Below are positions 1,379 to 23,631 of a stretch of DNA of 23,631 nt, in pieces. The DNA is taken from positions 1 through 23,631 of the forward strand of contig JBEKBM010000033.1 of NCBI GenBank assembly GCA_050015395.1, given 5' to 3'. Position numbers and translations under genes: made by a program. The stretch comes from Candidatus Bathyarchaeia archaeon (GTDB lineage Archaea; Thermoproteota; Bathyarchaeia; Bathyarchaeales; Bathycorpusculaceae). Below the pieces are notes generated by a model. It did not search any database and was not told where the DNA came from. It saw only the letters and a list, made by a program, of their open reading frames with translations. How positions within the stretch are numbered: position 1 is the first letter of the stretch; each line of letters opens with the position of its first letter.

Positions 1379-1884
1379 CAACGACAATAATTGGAATAGT
1401 ATCCAACACTACCATAGTTCCCATCACACTCGAAGGAAACATAACTGCCCAGCAAATGTTGGGTAATGTCACAATCACACCAAACCAACCCACCGCGTCA
1501 ATCACAGTGTCCTTCACAAATAACAGGATCAAGCGGAACAGTGGGCTTTAGCAACATGACCCTTCCGAAAACTGCCCTACACTACGGCACAATCCCAGTC
1601 ATATATAGGACGGCACGTTGGCTCCAGACCAAGGCTACGCACAAGACGCCAACAACTTCTACGTGTGGTTCACAACGCAATTCAGCACACACCAAGTGAC
1701 AATACAGTTCGCAGTACCTCCAATGCCGTCAGCTATATCATTAGGACTTGTGCTTGCCATCGTCATAACCGTCGCCGCAATCATTTTAATCTTCATAGTG
1801 ATAGCCATCAGACGTAGAAGACGAAAGCCTGAAACGCCACCAAAACCTGACAGCGCATTACCAAAGCCTGAAACGCCCATTTAG
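1379..1884 (+). pseudogene. Frameshifted C-terminal domain + transmembrane anchor + basic tail of the surface protein
   Basis: Three frames join into one protein: TTIIGIVSNTTIVPITLEGNITAQQMLGNVTITPNQPTASITVSFT / ITGSSGTVGFSNMTLPKTALHYGTIPVIY / DGTLAPDQGYAQDANNFYVWFTTQFSTHQVTIQF...LGLVLAIVITVAAIILIFIVIAIRRRRRK. Shifts fall near 1375, 1518 and 1608. Confidence 0.75.
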
Positions 1885-1887
1885 AAA

Positions 1888-1940
1888 CGCCCGTTTTTGG
1901 GCTCATTTTCTTATTCTCATTTTTTTATTTTTATTATTCG
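1888..1940 (+). terminator. Putative terminator (short GCCC/GGGC stem followed by T-rich tract)
   Basis: gcccgtttttgggc then tcattttcttattctcatttttttatttttatt, directly after the stop at 1884. Confidence 0.4.
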
Positions 1941-2361
1941 AATTTTAAGTCGTAGCCTGTTTTCTTGCTGTAAGAAAGCAACCATGCTCATGAAAAGAAC
2001 CCAGCGTCTTATTCAAAATTGTGGTTCCGTTTGAATGGTTCCAAATTGCATGTTAAAGAGGCAAACGGCTTGTTGAGTAAGCTGCATTGTTCTTTCTGGA
2101 CAATTAGTCAACACTCTGAAAGTTGTATTTCTGTTGCACAATTTTCCAATGTGTAAGGGATTCGGTAAGGTTTATTAAGCATATATTGAGTGTTAATATT
2201 CAATACTGTTAGGTGTTGTAACAGTTGCCTAAAACAAAGGTTCATATCCTAAACCCGACTCAAATCAATAACCGAGATTCTTCTGCAAACAAAGAAGCAA
2301 CACCAAAACTGAATACTAACCTCTTTTCTATCTCCAAAAAAATCTCAGGAGCTTGTTAGAC

Positions 2362-2622
2362 ATGGCTAAAGTCAAACCAAATGAACACATATTCGGATTA
2401 CGACTAACTTTTCACAGCATAGGCATCAGCTGTCTAGCAGGAGCTGTCTTTCTACAAGTTCTAGTGTTTATGGATATCGCCTCTCAAGGCTTCTTCATGG
2501 GCGTAGAGAAAAACCCATTGATACTATACTCCGAATTAGCTATTACCTTCTTCTGCGTCATTTACCTCCTCCACCTATCTATCTCTAGAATCCTCTCACT
2601 TCTAAATTCAAGAACAAACTAA
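2362..2622 (+). CDS. Small membrane protein, 2 predicted TM helices, unknown function
   Basis: ATG at 2362 (alternative TTG 2353); two hydrophobic segments; pyrimidine tract after the stop (2635-2653). Confidence 0.6.
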   Translation: MAKVKPNEHIFGLRLTFHSIGISCLAGAVFLQVLVFMDIASQGFFMGVEKNPLILYSELAITFFCVIYLLHLSISRILSLLNSRTN

Positions 2623-3104
2623 AGAAACCCACAACCCTTTTCTTTTCTCTTTCAACGCCATGACAGACTCACATCATAAAAAAATAAACTCCAGCAAACA
2701 ATATATTAAGTTCATGGAGGCTGCTTCTCCAGCGCGTGAGCTATAATCATCGAGAGTTCCGATAATCAGGTTATGAAGTATTTGAAAAAAATTTGGTTTT
2801 CAAACTGAACATCTGGGCGAAATTTATTACCTTGCAGTAAAATGACCATTTCAATTGCAGAAGCTACTGGTTAATTCTTCTTGAGATATTTTTAGTTGAT
2901 TAATTTTGAAAGATTATAAATTCGATGTATGTATTTAGCTCTCGTTTTTTATCTTAAGGGTATTTGTGTGTGCTCAGCCTACCTACCCGGTCTACTAGAT
3001 GAGCCTAATATGCTTCAAATATGATTCAACATAGATGTGCATAGAACGAAGACCGCGCACTTTGCATGCAGAACGGTGCTTTTCAACATGGAAAAGTCAG
3101 TTTT

Positions 3105-15004: not shown

Positions 15005-15292
15005 TTATTGAAGAACGGGGTTTTGTTCAAAAATTACTTGCTCTTGCAGTGTTGTCGGATGTTTTTCGCTTATTATCATGGTTAGTTTTGAGTTTATTTT
15101 GCCGATTTTCTCGATTCTTTTTGTTACGATGTATTTGAGTTTCTCCATGTTGTCTGCTTTTACGTTTGCGATTATATCATAGACTCCCCAGAGGTGATGC
15201 GCTTCTTCGACACCTTCAATTTTTTTTAGAGCTTTCAGTACTTGATTTTCGGCTCCTATTTCGGTATTTAAGAGGACATAAGCTGTTGGCAT
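15005..15292 (-). CDS. Stand-alone Lrp/AsnC ligand-binding (RAM) domain protein, paralog 1 (with C-terminal extension)
   Basis: MPTAYVLLNTEIG...GVYDIIA..; no HTH domain; AAGGAG upstream. Confidence 0.85.
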   Translation of the reverse strand: MPTAYVLLNTEIGAENQVLKALKKIEGVEEAHHLWGVYDIIANVKADNMEKLKYIVTKRIEKIGKINSKLTMIISEKHPTTLQEQVIFEQNPVLQ

Positions 15293-15800
15293 TTTTCTTA
15301 ACAAACTCCTTTCATTTTGGGGGATGGGCGGTTGGATTCAGAGGTTTGGAGGATCTTTCTTGTTCAAGGGGAACGAAAAAAGGCTCAATGTGTGTCCAAG
15401 CTTCTTCATCCAACCTATAAAAAATTCTGTGCATCTGTTCACGGGGAGAGTTTCTATTATGATGTGGCTCCTCCCTGGCTTATCTTCGTGGATTTGCACG
15501 TTTACTTTCATTCTCTCACTGCTCCAGACGCACTGGAGTGCTAGATGAGTTGTACAAAATTTAAAATTATGTGACTAGCTTGATACAGTCACAACTTAAC
15601 ATTCATTTTGCGGAAGTTTGGAAGTTTTTGTTTGTTAAGCTTAATTTTAGCATAGTGGTTTCTGGCATGGACCTATAGTTCTTTTCCGTTTTGAAAGTCG
15701 GTTCCGCACCATGGGCATTTAAATTCTACTTTTATTAGTTATCGTTTTTACGTTTGTTTCTAGGTAATTTAAGGCTGTGTATGTATCATAAAATAACAAT

Positions 15801-15950
15801 CGCGGTTCTTTGAGGCTATTGTGAACTACCACCCTACAAGTAGGGTGGCTTCTCCAATCTAAGAGCAGTTGGAGTTCGGGATAGTTCACGCATACCCCCG
15901 AACAAAGGCATGTAACCTAAGTTCCTCTCAAGCTTCAAACCGATATTGAT
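15801..15950 (-). ncRNA. Predicted omegaRNA (reRNA) scaffold + guide of TnpB; 5' boundary uncertain
   Basis: TnpB omegaRNAs are known to overlap the tnpB 3' end and right end, with the guide taken from the flank. Here the scaffold ends ...GGTAGTTCAC at 15821 and the guide would be AATAGCCTCAAAGAACCGCG (15820-15801). Confidence 0.6.
15821..15852 (-). repeat. Right-end subterminal hairpin of the IS (ends in TCAC)
   Basis: Perfect inverted repeat ccaccctac-aa-gtagggtgg (15829-15848), preceded on - by GAAG and followed by TAGTTCAC. Confidence 0.85.
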
Positions 15951-16901
15951 AGCTCCGTTCAAATCAGCATTATACTCACCGTGACGACTACAAACGAAAA
16001 GACCCTGCGTCTTTCTGTTGCCTTCGAGACCGCAAACATGACAATCCCTGCTTGTGTACGCTTCACTCGTCGTTACTACGAGTACGCCCTTCAACGTTGC
16101 CTTATACGTTATCATCTGCGTCAAACGATAGAACGGCATGTTATCAACTATCCTTCGCATTCGCCGCCCCTTTTTCTGCGCCCTCTGCCGAATCCCCGTC
16201 AAGTCACCAAGCACAATTATGGCGTTTTCACGTTCAGCCTCATCCACAATGTCGCGACTAATCTTATGCAAAACAGCATCAACTTTACGATGCTCTGTGT
16301 CCTTGATTTTCCTAATAGTACCTAACGCTTTCTTCTCGCCAAGTCGTTTGCGAAGCCAAGCATAATGCCTACGAAGCCCACGAACCTTCCTGCCATAGAA
16401 ATGCGGATGCGAGACCACCCCATTGGAGAGCAACACGGTTGTTGCAATGGTTCTCTCACCCAAATCCACAGCAAGAATCCTGCTGAAAGCCAAATTCGCC
16501 TCAACCTCAATTTTAATGGCTACGTTGAGATAGAATTTTCCTTTGCGACGATACAATTTCGACTCACAAACCTTGAATTGCTCTGGAAAAGGTCTATGCG
16601 GCTTGATTGCTACCCAAAGCTGCCTCGTATTCTTGTTTGGGATTTTAGCCCAGAACTCAGAAACACTGTTGCATACTCGTTTAATTTTAAGAAGGTCATT
16701 TCTGATGCTGAGCGGATACTCCTGATTAGGTTTAACTGTTTTGTAGAATCGCTGTGCCTGCTGTTTGTTCGCAGAGTACAATCCAGAGTCTTCTTTGGTT
16801 TGCAAGAAATGTTGCAGGTTGTCGTACTCCGTGTTGAGAAATTGTTGTTTCCGCTTCGTCAATGATGTTACTCCGCACTGTATCGTCAGAGAGGCTTCCA
16901 T
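15834..16901 (-). CDS. tnpB: RNA-guided endonuclease TnpB (compact, rearranged RuvC-II)
   Basis: RuvC-I AVDLGE, bridge helix LHKISRDIV, VLGDL, SEAYTS, Zn finger CHVC...CSRH, RuvC-III NADLNGAINI. The stop codon lies inside the right-end hairpin. Confidence 0.93.
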   Translation of the reverse strand: MEASLTIQCGVTSLTKRKQQFLNTEYDNLQHFLQTKEDSGLYSANKQQAQRFYKTVKPNQEYPLSIRNDLLKIKRVCNSVSEFWAKIPNKNTRQLWVAIKPHRPFPEQFKVCESKLYRRKGKFYLNVAIKIEVEANLAFSRILAVDLGERTIATTVLLSNGVVSHPHFYGRKVRGLRRHYAWLRKRLGEKKALGTIRKIKDTEHRKVDAVLHKISRDIVDEAERENAIIVLGDLTGIRQRAQKKGRRMRRIVDNMPFYRLTQMITYKATLKGVLVVTTSEAYTSRDCHVCGLEGNRKTQGLFVCSRHGEYNADLNGAINIGLKLERNLGYMPLFGGMRELSRTPTALRLEKPPYL

Positions 16902-16937
16902 GTTTTCGAATCGATGTATTGGGTTTATTTAGTTTAT

Positions 16938-17100
16938 GTGCAAAACAGAAGTGCCAGCTACAACATCAACTACCACCTCGTCTGGTGCCCCCAAAGTACA
17001 GGAAACCAATTCTGGAAAAGCAAACTGTGAAATCCAAGCTACTACGTTGGAACAACAGGACCGCCTAAGCAGACATCATACAACGACATAGAAGAACAAA
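16938..17100 (+). pseudogene. tnpA: IS200-type Y1 transposase remnant (internal deletion, frameshifts, nonsense)
   Basis: RSASYNINYHLVWCP / KYRKPIL joined directly to WKSKL*NPSYYVGTTG and DIIQR-IEEQ. The HUH core is missing and the catalytic Tyr codon is damaged. Confidence 0.85.
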
Positions 17101-17112
17101 CTATACAAAAAC

Positions 17113-17165
17113 ACAATTCATCCTACCAACAAGTAGGGAGGTCTTCTTGCTGACTTCTCGATAAA
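17113..17165 (-). repeat. Left-end subterminal hairpin (degenerate) and TTTAT target motif
   Basis: cctaccaac-aa-gtagggagg (17122-17141; 2 mismatches); AAGA 5' of the stem on -; ataaa at 17161-17165. Confidence 0.75.
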
Positions 17166-17186: not shown

Positions 17187-17423
17187 TTATTTTTCTTCAA
17201 CGACGATCATTGTTAGAGTTGACCGTACTTTGTCTAGTCGTCGAATGCGCCACGTTACTATTTCTTTTAATTTATCCATGGTGTCTGCTTTGACTCTTGC
17301 TACTATGTCGTAGACTCCGTAAACGGCTGATGCTTCTTCAACACCCTCGACTTTTTTGAGTTCTTTCAGCACGTCAGATTCCGAGCCTATCTCGGTATTT
17401 ATTAAAACAAAGGCTGTTGGCAT
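17187..17423 (-). CDS. Stand-alone Lrp/AsnC ligand-binding domain protein, paralog 2
   Basis: MPTAFVLINTEIGSE...VYGVYDIVARV...IRRLDKVRSTLTMIV; no HTH. Confidence 0.92.
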   Translation of the reverse strand: MPTAFVLINTEIGSESDVLKELKKVEGVEEASAVYGVYDIVARVKADTMDKLKEIVTWRIRRLDKVRSTLTMIVVEEK

Positions 17424-18571: not shown

Positions 18572-19089
18572 TTAGGTTTTCAAGCCTTTGATTAAACACT
18601 CAGCACCTAATCTATTAAGCGTACCCAACCTGTTAAGTCACATTTTTCACTTTATTTCTTAAGCATAATCGGAATCAGCAACCAAAGACGCTTAAGCTAA
18701 GAACTAAAAGAGCAAAAGGCTGATCAGTAGATCCGTAAGTGAGTTAAGCTTTGTGTGCTCTACTGCCTACCGGGTAGGTGTAGTTATATACGTTTTGACG
18801 GTACATTTTGACGGTGCAGTTGGGCTGGCGGTAACGTTTGAGTGGTTTCTTGGCTTGGATTGCTTGGGCTTCTGCGGGTGAACACTTTTAGGCGTCGTTG
18901 AAGGCTTTCAAGCAGCCTTAAGCTGGCTTGCAACTATGCTTAGCAAGTAAAAGCGTTATACCCAAGCAAGTGCCAGACACTTTCGGAACTACCGCTGATG
19001 ACTTGTCTGGTAGGAAAGTTACATTTTAGTTATAGGCAAATTAATTTCCGCATTGTAGAGCAAAAATAAGAGAGTGATAGTTGCCGGCG

Positions 19090-19323
19090 TTATTCTTCCA
19101 TCATTATCAGCGTTAACGTTGACCTGACTCTGCTTATGGTTCTTACTTTCCGCGTTACCGTTTCCCTAAGTTTTTCCATTGAATCAGCTGCTATTTTAGT
19201 AATAATATCATACACGCCATAAGAGTAGTATGCTTCTTCTACGCCTTCAATTTTTTTAATTTCCTCAAGAACTTCTTCTTCTGAGCCTGATTCAACGTTT
19301 ATCAATACAAAGGCTTTAGGCAT
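19090..19323 (-). CDS. Stand-alone Lrp/AsnC ligand-binding domain protein, paralog 3
   Basis: MPKAFVLINVESGSE...YGVYDIITKI...VRSTLTLIM; GGTGGAG upstream; no HTH. Confidence 0.92.
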   Translation of the reverse strand: MPKAFVLINVESGSEEEVLEEIKKIEGVEEAYYSYGVYDIITKIAADSMEKLRETVTRKVRTISRVRSTLTLIMMEE

Positions 19324-19450
19324 TTCTATCTCCACCCATATTTAGTGATCACTTAATTTAAAACATTTTTGCAACAAAAGACAATTTTCCAATCAAAATT
19401 TTTATTCTTTTATGTCTCATGTCAAACAAAGTAATGTTGATTCAGATAAA

Positions 19451-19694
19451 GTTGAGATTGGCCACTCTTTAATGTCTGAAGAACATGGTCCAAACGACCT
19501 TGTTAAGTATGCCCGTTTAGCTGAGGATCAGGCTTTACTTTTGCAACCTCTCAGACCATCCGAAGAAGCATGTGGAGGCTATTAAGAAATACTCGGATGC
19601 TGGTTTCAAAAAAGGGCTTCATGATGCTGGGTGCAATCAGGAAGGTGTCTTTAGGTTTTATATGGAGAAGGTTATTCCACAGCTAACGAGCTAA
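19451..19694 (+). pseudogene. Internally deleted F420-dependent LLM-class oxidoreductase (G6PDH-like family) remnant
   Basis: N-terminus VEIGHSLMSEEHGPNDLVKYARLAED-GFTFA-SDH is fused to C-terminus PKKHVEAIKKYSDAGF...NQEGVFRFYMEKVIPQLTS*. Not in the ORF track because of frameshifts. Confidence 0.78.
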
Positions 19695-19792
19695 GCAGGT
19701 CAGCACAAAATTCAAGTTTTAAGGGCATAGTTTGTTTTTTATTCAGAAATAGTCTTAAAGTTGATTTGATGATAGTATTTTGCGTAGTTTGT

Positions 19793-21316: not shown

Positions 21317-23631
21317 ATGTCTTTTATACAACTAGGACGCAATAAATCGAGAATCCAAACAATCGCAGCAATAGCACTAATGTTTTTCATGGCATCTTCG
21401 CTACTATTCGGCGCTAGCAACGTTAAAGCTCTAACCATAAGCACCAATCCAAGCTACTGTTTCGTCGCTGCTAATCCAAACCCCCTCGGTGCCAATCAAA
21501 CAGCGCTTGTTGACTTTTGGATGGCTGATGTAACCACATTAACATTCGGTAACGCAGGTTTCTTCTACAGTGGTGTAACCGTAGTAATAACACAACCTGA
21601 TGGAACCAACGTGACAAAAGGACCATACACGCTTAACTCGCTTGCAACAGGCTTCTTTGACTTCACCCCAACAACCACAGGCAACTACACATTCCAGATG
21701 ATCTATCCAGGACAAACTTTCGCGGCAATAAATGTTGCCTATGCAGCATGCGTGAGCCCGGTATACACACTTGTCGTGCAATCCTCACCGATAGCTGCTT
21801 ATCCGCAAACCCCCCTGCCAACCTCTTACTGGTCACGCCCAATCAACGCACAGAACTACTTGTGGAGTACAGTTTCTGGTAACTGGCTGATGTGCTCTTG
21901 GAACCTAACCGGCTCCGGAGAGTCTATTGCCCGAGCTTTCGACGACGGTTCAGCTTATGTCGGAGAAGGCGTGTCACCTAACAGTGCCCACATCCTATGG
22001 ACTAAACCACTATCCGCTGGAGGTCTAGTGGGTGGAGAATACGGCAGTACACCATACTATACAGGAGCATCTTACGAGATGTACTTCCAACCACCAGTAA
22101 TCGAGAACGGAATACTCTACTACAACACAATAATCGGTGGAGAACCTAGCACGGAAACTAACACCCCAAGCATCACCGCAGTAAGCCTGCAAACTGGACA
22201 GACCCTCTTCACTATTCAAGATGCAACCTTAACCTTCGGGCAAATCTACAACTACGTTTCACCTAACCAAAGTGGAGCTTTCGCTTACCTCTGGTCAGTA
22301 TCAGGCAGCACCTGGAAAATGTACGATGCAACAACAGGCAGCTATATCTTGACACTCGTCGGCGTTCCCTCAGGAGCTGCCATGCCATCATCCGACGGCA
22401 GCATTCTCGTCTACTCTTTGACTGCTAACGCTAATGGCTATGCACTATCACTATGGAACTCAAGCCAAGCTCTAGCCATAGATTCAACACATAACCCAGC
22501 GGAATCGAACGACTACTGGACGTGGAGGCCATACTCATGGACAACTGGATTTGCCGACGGTATTGTAAATGCTACCGGAACAACTGTGGATTCCTCTGGG
22601 ATTTTACAGAGCACTAACGGAACAATGTGGACAGTAGAAGAACCACAACCAATAGCAGGTGCAGTATTCACCCCAGCAAGCATATACGGTCCGGCGAGTT
22701 GGAGCCCCGGTCTAACCTTAACCCCTGTATTCAATCAAGGCGGTTGGTTTGACGGAAACGACATAGTTGCTGCAGCAATACCAGGAGGAATTATGAATGC
22801 TTTCTTTGGAGTGACATGGAACATAACCAGCACAACACCAGTATATATCGCAGGTTACAACATGGCAACAGGAGCCCAAGCTTTCAAGTCAACACTAACA
22901 CCACCCAGTGGTCTGCCAAATGACTTCGGAGCCACCATCGAAGAAACATACGAATTCAACGGCATCTACTACGTCTTCGTAAAGCAAACTCTGCAGTGGG
23001 CAGCATGGGACATCCAAACAGGCGGTGCGCCAATATGGGTTAGCACTCCATACAATAATCCATGGGGCGCTTATGCTCAAAGCGGCGGTGAAATGGTTGC
23101 TTACGGTCTCTTCTATGCAGCAGGTTGGGATGGTATGATCCACGCCTACAACGTGACTACCGGCGTACAAGAATTTGAGTTCAGCTCTGCAATCGCTGGC
23201 TACAATACACCTTATGGTGTCTATCCATTCTACGGCGGTATAACAGTGACAGCTGACGGCAAAATCTTTGCTCAAACTGGACAGCACGGTAACGGTGTAA
23301 CAACAATGTACCAAGGACAAGCACTATACGTTATCGACGCAACTACTGGAAAAAGCCTCTGGAACATGACGGGCTGGTTCAACAATGGCGCACTCGCTGA
23401 CGGCGTATGGGTCGTACAGAACAACTACGACAACCAAATCTACGCTTTCGGCCAGGGTCCAAGCGCTACAACAGTCACGGCGTCAGCCGGAGTCGGAAAC
23501 ACTGTAACTATTCAGGGAACAGTTACTGACCAAAGTCCTGGAGCTATCGGCACCCCAGCAATCGCTGATCAATACATGAGTACATGGATGGCTTACCTTT
23601 ACGAGCAGCAGGCACTTCCAAGCAACTTCCC
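21317..23631 (+). CDS. Large secreted PQQ-binding-like beta-propeller repeat protein (Bathyarchaeia type); 3'-partial
   Basis: Hand translation shows no stop from ATG 21317 to the window end (~771 codons). Signal peptide, then PLPTSYWSRPI, HILWTKP..GGLVGG, repeated D..TG...W blades, YDNQIYAFG.GPSATTV, GTVTDQSPG, TPAIAD..M..WM.YLY. Confidence 0.88.
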   Translation, partial: MSFIQLGRNKSRIQTIAAIALMFFMASSLLFGASNVKALTISTNPSYCFVAANPNPLGANQTALVDFWMADVTTLTFGNAGFFYSGVTVVITQPDGTNVTKGPYTLNSLATGFFDFTPTTTGNYTFQMIYPGQTFAAINVAYAACVSPVYTLVVQSSPIAAYPQTPLPTSYWSRPINAQNYLWSTVSGNWLMCSWNLTGSGESIARAFDDGSAYVGEGVSPNSAHILWTKPLSAGGLVGGEYGSTPYYTGASYEMYFQPPVIENGILYYNTIIGGEPSTETNTPSITAVSLQTGQTLFTIQDATLTFGQIYNYVSPNQSGAFAYLWSVSGSTWKMYDATTGSYILTLVGVPSGAAMPSSDGSILVYSLTANANGYALSLWNSSQALAIDSTHNPAESNDYWTWRPYSWTTGFADGIVNATGTTVDSSGILQSTNGTMWTVEEPQPIAGAVFTPASIYGPASWSPGLTLTPVFNQGGWFDGNDIVAAAIPGGIMNAFFGVTWNITSTTPVYIAGYNMATGAQAFKSTLTPPSGLPNDFGATIEETYEFNGIYYVFVKQTLQWAAWDIQTGGAPIWVSTPYNNPWGAYAQSGGEMVAYGLFYAAGWDGMIHAYNVTTGVQEFEFSSAIAGYNTPYGVYPFYGGITVTADGKIFAQTGQHGNGVTTMYQGQALYVIDATTGKSLWNMTGWFNNGALADGVWVVQNNYDNQIYAFGQGPSATTVTASAGVGNTVTIQGTVTDQSPGAIGTPAIADQYMSTWMAYLYEQQALPSNF

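Follow-up and report, generated by a model that had tools for sequence, protein, structure and literature searches.

The window analysed here, a 23,631-nt stretch of Candidatus Bathyarchaeia archaeon DNA (GenBank assembly GCA_050015395.1, contig JBEKBM010000033.1, positions 1 to 23,631), harbors a tnpB gene inside a non-autonomous insertion sequence (IS) of the IS200/IS605 type. The locus is best explained by a TnpB protein with a relocated RuvC-II glutamate that most probably is competent for catalysis. The relocated glutamate is not new, as this arrangement has been a published clade character since 2023. New here is the anatomy of the element, namely its borders, its empty site, its dead tnpA and an omegaRNA lying inside the open reading frame (ORF).

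The tnpB gene and the relevant residues of its product map to the window as follows.
15834-16901, minus strand: tnpB, 355 amino acids (aa), intact (ORF scan, translation and family matches)
16464-16466, minus strand: RuvC-I Asp146 in RILAVDLGERT (codon-by-codon mapping)
16206-16208, minus strand: Gly232 at the canonical RuvC-II Glu position in AIIVLGDLTGI (codon mapping; near the end of strand 227-233)
16062-16064, minus strand: Glu280, predicted alternative catalytic Glu, in VVTTSEAYTSR (codon mapping; right after strand 275-279)
15963-15965, minus strand: RuvC-III Asp313 in GEYNADLNGAI, the NADLN motif (codon mapping)
15981-16043, minus strand: zinc finger of the CCCH kind with C287, C290, C304 and H307 (CHVC at 287-290, CSRH at 304-307)

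According to the ORF list of the window, the 355-aa frame is open throughout. Its product matched the NCBIfam model NF040570 guided_TnpB at 156 bits (E 1.7e-45, cut-off 100) and Pfam PF07282 Cas12f1-like_TNB at 65.4 bits (E 5.2e-18, cut-off 26.3); hence this is not a chance ORF, and the score above the cut-off of a curated model places the protein in the TnpB family. It also has the split RuvC domain, the three acidic residues and the zinc finger between RuvC-II and RuvC-III that characterize TnpB. An earlier sequence-only reading had proposed a TnpB of about 355 aa at this place, with intact RuvC-I and RuvC-III aspartates, a Gly within VLGDL instead of the canonical RuvC-II Glu, a Glu 48 codons further on within SEAYTS and a CHVC...CSRH zinc finger, all of which was borne out by the codon-by-codon mapping, including the distance of 48 codons from G232 to E280. 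When the family profile was aligned to solved Cas12f chains, its 'ivlGdL' fell on 'iqmEDL' and its 'tseaYTS' on 'idpqYTS', which places G232 at the position of the canonical Glu and E280 at that of the usual Pro.

Two alignments were used to follow these positions among relatives. Of 2215 candidates from a word-indexed protein search, 795 reached E <= 1e-3; from the best 120 that were listed, 51 were hand-picked for near-full length with an identity spread of 50-91% and aligned together with the query. D146, G232, E280 and D313 are invariant in all 52 rows of this close-relative alignment. The fourth zinc ligand is His in seven of these rows, the query among them, and Cys in the other 45. For the second set, representatives of clusters at 50% identity were searched exhaustively with HMMER (4859 hits at E <= 1e-3, best 150 listed); 75 of those listed, with lengths of 300-520 aa, plus the query gave 76 rows, leaving out 74 fragments of less than 300 aa and one protein of 1761 aa. 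This long protein (P0200) matches query residues 250-311, the neighbourhood of the zinc finger, in 15 separate stretches, which might be explained by a repetitive fusion or by faulty assembly.

Among the 76 representatives, position 232 is occupied by Gly in 61, Cys in one and Glu in 14. A Glu at position 280 is present in 62/62 rows lacking Glu232 and in 0/14 rows possessing it. The sequence-only reading had named missing conservation of the alternative Glu in homologs with the Gly as one outcome that would speak against it, and the alignment came out in its favour. The 14 rows with the canonical Glu have Pro (10), Ala (2), Ser (1) or Asn (1) at position 280, in agreement with the statement of that reading that most TnpBs have a Pro there. 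D146 is kept in 75 of the 76 rows, the remaining row having a gap. In a quick tree of the representatives the rows with the relocated Glu cluster, with two label changes compared to a mean of 13.1 after shuffling, and none of 500 shuffles was as low as two. One protein (P0173) with Glu at 232 and Pro at 280 nests within the relocated-Glu group on this tree; it may have reverted or may be misplaced. Purifying selection acts on the protein family: over codons 1-320 the ratio of nonsynonymous to synonymous substitution rates (dN/dS) was 0.09-0.15 in comparison to eight intact relatives.

These data bear on the alternative that the sequence-only reading had offered, a nuclease-dead protein resembling TldR in which loss of the canonical Glu ended cleavage, leaving a binder or repressor that acts by DNA binding only. 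TldRs are small TnpB-derived proteins that can be without the canonical RuvC residues. The Gly at the canonical position would suit such a protein, as would a single-copy gene with no working transposase beside it. It does not fit, however, with a compensating Glu that co-varies perfectly, with D146 and D313 kept in all rows of the close-relative alignment, so that all three acidic residues are present, or with the low dN/dS. Jiang et al. 2023 (Sci Adv, PMC10530073) found catalytic activity in TvTnpB and ApmFNuc, which have this arrangement as well. Moreover, the gene lies within a transposon with intact ends, its presumed guide is transposon flank and not a host promoter, the omegaRNA is conserved, and the site is empty in genomes of the same genus, which speaks for a recent insertion and against a domesticated host gene. 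We regard a nuclease-dead binder as barely credible here.

A predicted structure is consistent with the relocated catalytic site. The AlphaFold2 model calculated from the 52-row alignment had a mean predicted local distance difference test (pLDDT) score of 84.2 and a predicted template modelling score of 0.76, with only the tail, residues 333-355, below pLDDT 50. DSSP assigned D146 to strand 141-147, G232 to the region near the end of strand 227-233, E280 to the position directly after strand 275-279 and D313 to the start of helix 312-327. We take this layout of beta-1, beta-4, beta-5 and helix to be that of the RNase H fold. In this layout the RuvC-II Glu would have left the end of beta-4, where Gly232 now stands, for a site immediately behind beta-5 (Glu280). 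The best Foldseek matches of the model were ternary complexes of Cas12f and TnpB, while Fanzor2 (9b0l_P) appeared at rank 36 with a query-normalised TM-score of 0.51.

The family profile matched Fanzor2 9B0L at E 8.3e-11. A 103-aa fragment comprising residues 223-325, searched against the PDB, matched 9b0l_P at E 4.4e-4, with fragment positions 26-98 on chain positions 435-508; by arithmetic on these alignment end points E280 corresponds to residue 467 and D313 to residue 501. In the cryo-electron microscopy (cryo-EM) structure of Fanzor2 (PMC11832414), Asp324, Glu467 and Asp501 form the triad holding Mg2+, with Glu467 shifted by about 50 residues. By the end points, E280 and D313 thus correspond to two members of the Fanzor2 triad, Glu467 and Asp501, which supports D146/E280/D313 as the predicted metal-binding triad of the bathyarchaeal protein. 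The proposal of the sequence-only reading that this is an active nuclease of the rearranged type draws support from the co-variation, the Fanzor2 end points and the activity of published relatives, and catalysis would follow by analogy to the latter.

The element around tnpB and its parts have the following positions.
15821-17160, minus strand: whole IS200/IS605-type element, 1340 bp, non-autonomous (from empty sites; no target-site duplication)
17161-17165, minus strand: putative target-adjacent motif (TAM) and insertion target TTTAT in minus-strand reading, directly 5′ of the left end
17101-17160, minus strand: left end (LE), which contains a subterminal hairpin (about 17122-17141) and is conserved in 9/9 loci reaching that far
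16950-17153, plus strand: remnant of a divergent Y1 transposase gene, tnpA (frame reading and alignment to intact relatives)
16928-16934, minus strand: TAAATAA, similar to a TATA box, some 27-33 nt ahead of the start codon of tnpB
15821-15955, minus strand: omegaRNA scaffold, which extends over the final ~40 codons of tnpB (RNAalifold)
15801-15820, minus strand: flank and presumed guide, beginning AATAGCCTCAAAGAACCGCG

The borders of the element are defined to the base by empty sites. In two genomes of the same genus (G004 and G016) the flanking genes with Lrp/AsnC domains are directly adjacent and the element is absent; their spacer reads ...TTTTAT and continues at once with the homologue of the right flank of the window. 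Therefore, the insert consists of exactly 15821-17160, without duplication, 3′ of TTTAT. In addition, peat run X21 yielded one low-depth contig in which 15820 is followed directly by 17161, so that exactly 1340 bases are missing. This contig differs at eight positions over 95 nt of flank and hence stems from a related strain.

For the right end, 21 related loci were compared, which gave 18 distinct right-end sequences. All 21 read GTTCAC followed by complete divergence, and the DNA similarity stops at window positions 15818-15821 in 20 of them, extending to 15810 in one (L023). A further locus (L015) gave no match at the right end, and L005 is the window DNA itself. The hairpins of the two ends are direct repeats with 88% identity, and compensatory changes in the stem of the left one are visible by eye, though uncounted. 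The element thus shows the hallmarks of IS200/IS605 insertion sequences, with subterminal hairpins in the same orientation at both ends, no inverted terminal repeats, no target-site duplication and insertion 3′ of a short specific motif. All nine loci that possess a left end, as well as one loose-end contig, have the tetranucleotide TTAT at a distance of 5-13 nt on the upstream side of the left-end core, and in eight of these ten it reads TTTAT, the exact position being available for the window only; TTTAT is thus a candidate TAM. As a side observation, three peat/wetland DNA runs had an about 3-4x higher depth in bin 17071-17147, and their contigs depart from the window sequence at 17062 and 17139. 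Depth rise and contig departures point to other related copies of the left end and the tnpA 3′ part in those communities, and one such left-end copy is flanked by ...GGTTTAT.

The right end of the element at 15821 is located 13 nt past the tnpB stop codon, and accordingly the omegaRNA scaffold is encoded almost wholly in the tnpB frame. It was delineated in an alignment of the last 170 nt of the 18 distinct elements. Of the 31 pairs that RNAalifold predicted, 16 show compensatory changes. A count of the pairs gave 95.5% paired cells, and 0/500 shuffles reached any of five measures, whereas slid controls had 35-45% of cells paired and at most five compensatory pairs. Four covarying helices lie within 15924-15828. 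A fifth, possible long-range helix of 15955-15952 with 15826-15823 never varies, so that covariation neither supports nor contradicts it. The 3′ tail ends with ...GGTAGTTCAC at 15821. Over codons ~321-345 the third codon position becomes more conserved and the amino acids less so, and the rate of synonymous substitution is depressed in codons 321-355, which indicates that the low-confidence C-terminal tail of the protein has been shaped by the overlapping RNA. TnpB systems are further characterized by a structured omegaRNA that lies 3′ in the gene and stops at the right end of the transposon, as found here. Rfam returned no family at its gathering threshold anywhere in the window, the omegaRNA region included. 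The related loci diverge right after GTTCAC, and the flank from 15820 onwards would serve as the guide, for which a length of ~20 nt is assumed.

Divergently to tnpB, only a remnant of tnpA exists. An internal deletion of ~210 bp has removed the HUH motif, a start codon is missing, a TGA lies in frame and an Asp stands where the catalytic Tyr belongs; read in frame from 16902, the remnant gives SASYNINYHLVWCP..FWKSKL*NPSYY..YNDIEEQ. It is the only Y1 transposase in the window, and it is dead. In seven related loci (L004, L006, L008, L010, L012, L021 and L025) a stretch of ~470 nt that separates the left end from the start of tnpB is conserved, and in L010, the only one of them with ORFs listed, it encodes a divergent Y1 transposase of 145 aa (Pfam Y1_Tnp, E 1.3e-40). 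In this intact gene (L010:408-845, minus strand) the last ~12 codons are encoded by the left-end hairpin itself, which mirrors the encoding of the tnpB tail in the omegaRNA and right-end hairpin. The ~210-bp deletion is common to the window and to L003, an element at a different site in another genome with 85.6% DNA identity to the window copy. Because this deletion is shared across that distance, the finding suggests that TnpB/omegaRNA elements lacking tnpA persist and keep moving over long periods. The TATA-like box upstream of tnpB has a similar counterpart, TTAAATA, that is kept in related loci, and is a possible archaeal promoter.

Taken together, and by analogy to the established behaviour of IS200/IS605 TnpB systems, we propose the following mechanism. 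The 1340-bp element has inserted after TTTAT in the spacer, and its own tnpA is deleted and dead. The last ~105-135 nt of the element, nearly all within the 3′ end of the ORF, fold as the omegaRNA scaffold, and a tnpB transcript running past 15821 would be processed into an omegaRNA with the flank from 15820 as its guide. The TnpB-omegaRNA complex would recognise TTTAT plus a match to the guide, which is the joint left on excision, i.e. the emptied donor site. Cleavage of this emptied donor by the D146/E280/D313 site would bias repair to retention of the element, in what would amount to a homing role. With tnpA dead, the window copy may be without a natural substrate.

Several observations weigh against a working nuclease at this locus. 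The element is present as a single copy in its 2.59-Mb genome, its tnpA is dead, and the only other Y1 TnpA of the genome is of a different kind; hence excision, and with it the natural target of the nuclease, may no longer occur here. That second TnpA (G000 C9:82-570, L030) seems to be without the usual C-terminal Tyr motif. The only other TnpB of the genome (G000 contig C20:136-1245, L031) is canonical, with the RuvC-II Glu and DRDLN as RuvC-III. Both genes are situated at the ends of contigs and may belong to a single IS that the assembly has cut in two. Moreover, three related tnpB copies contain frameshifts or stops: L004:3001-4072 has a TAA at codon 48 and several frameshifts, L014:1526-2613 one frameshift near codon 49, and L003:3001-4079 two or more frameshifts, of which one falls within the VLGDL motif. 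These lesions may reflect decay or (long-read) assembly error. The residue correspondence to Fanzor2 was read from alignment end points in place of a printed alignment. Finally, the sole evidence from RNA libraries is a 339-nt contig of a related element from metatranscriptome run X24, for which DNA carry-over is possible. This run contained only a small share of the query, and those parts of the window that lack RNA cover carry no information on expression. The contig covers 15821-16129 plus 23 unrelated nt past the right end, with 22 differences in 309 aligned bases, and gives a weak hint that the 3′ region of this related element is transcribed together with its guide.

If these points are given full weight, the copy becomes a stranded relic, the ORF of which is open only through recency and which, unexpressed or functionless, will decay like L003, L004 and L014. 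The dead tnpA without a cognate TnpA elsewhere, the single copy, the frameshifts and stops in relatives and the fact that no transcript of the exact window sequence was seen among the metatranscriptome contigs would agree with it. Yet the window protein deviates at 0/114 of the columns that are at least 90% conserved among the 51 relatives, the lowest value in an alignment with a median of three and a maximum of 14 deviations per sequence. The omegaRNA helices and both ends are intact as well, and the tnpA deletion in common with L003 argues for a tnpA-less lineage that has persisted and moved. We consider a stranded relic unlikely and favour the catalytically competent, relocated-Glu TnpB.

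The distribution of the element bears on a third possibility, that the gene has been exapted for a host function such as regulation or defence and is no longer part of a mobile element. Its single copy would be compatible with this, and it adjoins regulatory-domain genes, as the insertion occupies the intergenic spacer between two paralogous genes with Lrp/AsnC ligand-binding domains. Against such a function, a close homologue (E <= 1e-40) was found in 0/60 other genomes of the same genus, G004 and G016 have no insertion in the orthologous spacer, related copies are situated in unrelated flanks and the transposon ends are intact. Exaptation therefore appears very improbable to us, and a TnpB that is still part of its IS200/IS605 element is the preferred reading. 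Close relatives are present in other Bathyarchaeota metagenome-assembled genomes and in metagenomes. Three related loci (L013, L028 and L029) come from one metagenome and have a common right end; as the flanks of L028 and L029 differ, related elements are multi-copy elsewhere. The window copy is a recent, horizontally acquired insertion that is now probably immobile. The stretch is present in 23 peat/wetland DNA runs, and the source sample may be among them.

The Lrp/AsnC genes that border the insertion are also adjacent to each other in genomes of the same genus.
15005-15304 and 17187-17423, minus strand: paralogous small genes with Lrp/AsnC ligand-binding domains, 74% DNA identity over ~170 nt

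Other neighbours are the housekeeping genes for AlaRS, TiaS, DnaK and DnaJ. Two antisense ORFs within tnpB (114 and 166 aa, plus strand) were considered as genes and rejected, their length and position not being kept in ten related copies; L007 has no antisense ORF of at least 80 aa within tnpB. A tandem repeat at 749-1313 (period 222, 2.5 copies, 73% match) lies inside the ORF 2-1378 on the plus strand and suggests that the latter encodes a protein with repeated ~74-aa domains. At 21317-23629 on the plus strand there is an ORF of 771 aa with an open 3′ end, for which Pfam gave nothing at E <= 0.001. ORFs of at least 90 aa are absent from two stretches of 1.2-1.7 kb, 1379-3104 and 18572-19765. 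No tRNA was found anywhere in the window.

The locus adds no new principle, since the clade was described in 2023, activity of an archaeal TnpB has been shown and the rearranged site has been seen in Fanzor2 by cryo-EM. The relocated-Glu RuvC site is nevertheless a real and interesting piece of enzyme evolution, and the locus illustrates how non-autonomous IS200/IS605 elements survive the loss of their transposase. Its practical value lies in the base-exact borders, the empty site, the predicted TAM, the defined start of the guide and the scaffold supported by covariation, which make it a ready candidate for tests of small TnpB nucleases of the relocated-Glu clade. Only tentatively, and with considerable doubt, do we suggest that it represents an unusually minimal system from a mesophilic peat archaeon, with a 355-aa nuclease, a scaffold of ~135 nt at most and a simple TTTAT TAM, as predicted. 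Were the enzyme active and free of collateral cleavage like other relocated-Glu enzymes, it would be a useful compact editor.

Among known systems, no characterised TnpB from Bathyarchaeota was found in a literature search judged by titles and abstracts. A toxin-antitoxin reading of the RHH/MazE-TnpB kind was rejected because that clade has a RuvC-III change and no zinc finger (PMC10691335), and because the upstream gene here is the tnpA remnant. An association with clustered regularly interspaced short palindromic repeats (CRISPR) as for Cas12f was likewise dismissed: the window has no CRISPR-like repeats, and NF049972 Cas12f2 scored 127 bits compared to a cut-off of 450. The protein shares its fold and domain order with ISDra2 TnpB and Cas12f, the best structural matches being Cas12f ternary complexes. 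Further points in common are an omegaRNA that extends into the 3′ part of the gene and a TAM, here putative, located 5′ of the left end. In contrast, those enzymes have the canonical Glu on beta-4 and a Pro at the position of E280; Cas12f moreover is linked to CRISPR arrays, whereas this window contains none.

The layout of the triad, Asp followed by a relocated Glu and Asp, is that of Fanzor2 from Acanthamoeba polyphaga mimivirus (PDB 9B0L). The latter is eukaryotic-viral and 520 aa long with a nuclear localisation signal and an N-terminal extension, whereas the protein studied here is encoded on an archaeal chromosome and is without those parts. An identity as Fanzor was excluded on account of this archaeal context, the lack of the N-terminal extension and relatives named as Bathyarchaeota and other archaea. 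In Jiang et al. 2023, the E467A exchange renders ApmFNuc dead, and TvTnpB of the archaeon Thermoplasma volcanium shows TAM-dependent DNA cleavage in vitro, with no collateral activity reported there. TvTnpB resembles the window protein in its archaeal origin, its relocated Glu (E323), its place beside an IS605 TnpA and an omegaRNA at the right end. It differs in its experimentally determined TAM, NTGAC, whereas the insertion site here predicts TTTAT.

That the rearranged site is known from Fanzors and some TnpB clades, as the sequence-only reading had stated, is confirmed by the literature, where it figures as RIIr-5, TnpB2 or pro-Fanzor. Members of RIIr-5 (Altae-Tran et al. 2023, PNAS, PMC10691335) have Gly instead of the RuvC-II Glu, a loss made good by an alternative Glu as in RuvX; the authors describe a major clade, the largest group of rearranged TnpBs, with a mobility about equal to that of other clades. 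Jiang et al. introduced the name TnpB2, with the alternative Glu about 45 residues downstream, and the Fanzor2 structure paper (PMC11832414) speaks of 'TnpB2 or pro-Fanzor'. By its residue layout we assign the bathyarchaeal protein to the RIIr-5/TnpB2 sub-group. It has Gly in place of the canonical RuvC-II Glu and a co-varying Glu 48 residues on (~45-50 in the papers), before the zinc finger, together with the remnant of a Y1 tnpA in an IS200/IS605 element and an archaeal host like that of TvTnpB. Nothing categorical sets it apart from this sub-group, its own traits being the length of 355 aa, His as the fourth zinc ligand and an element from which tnpA has been deleted.

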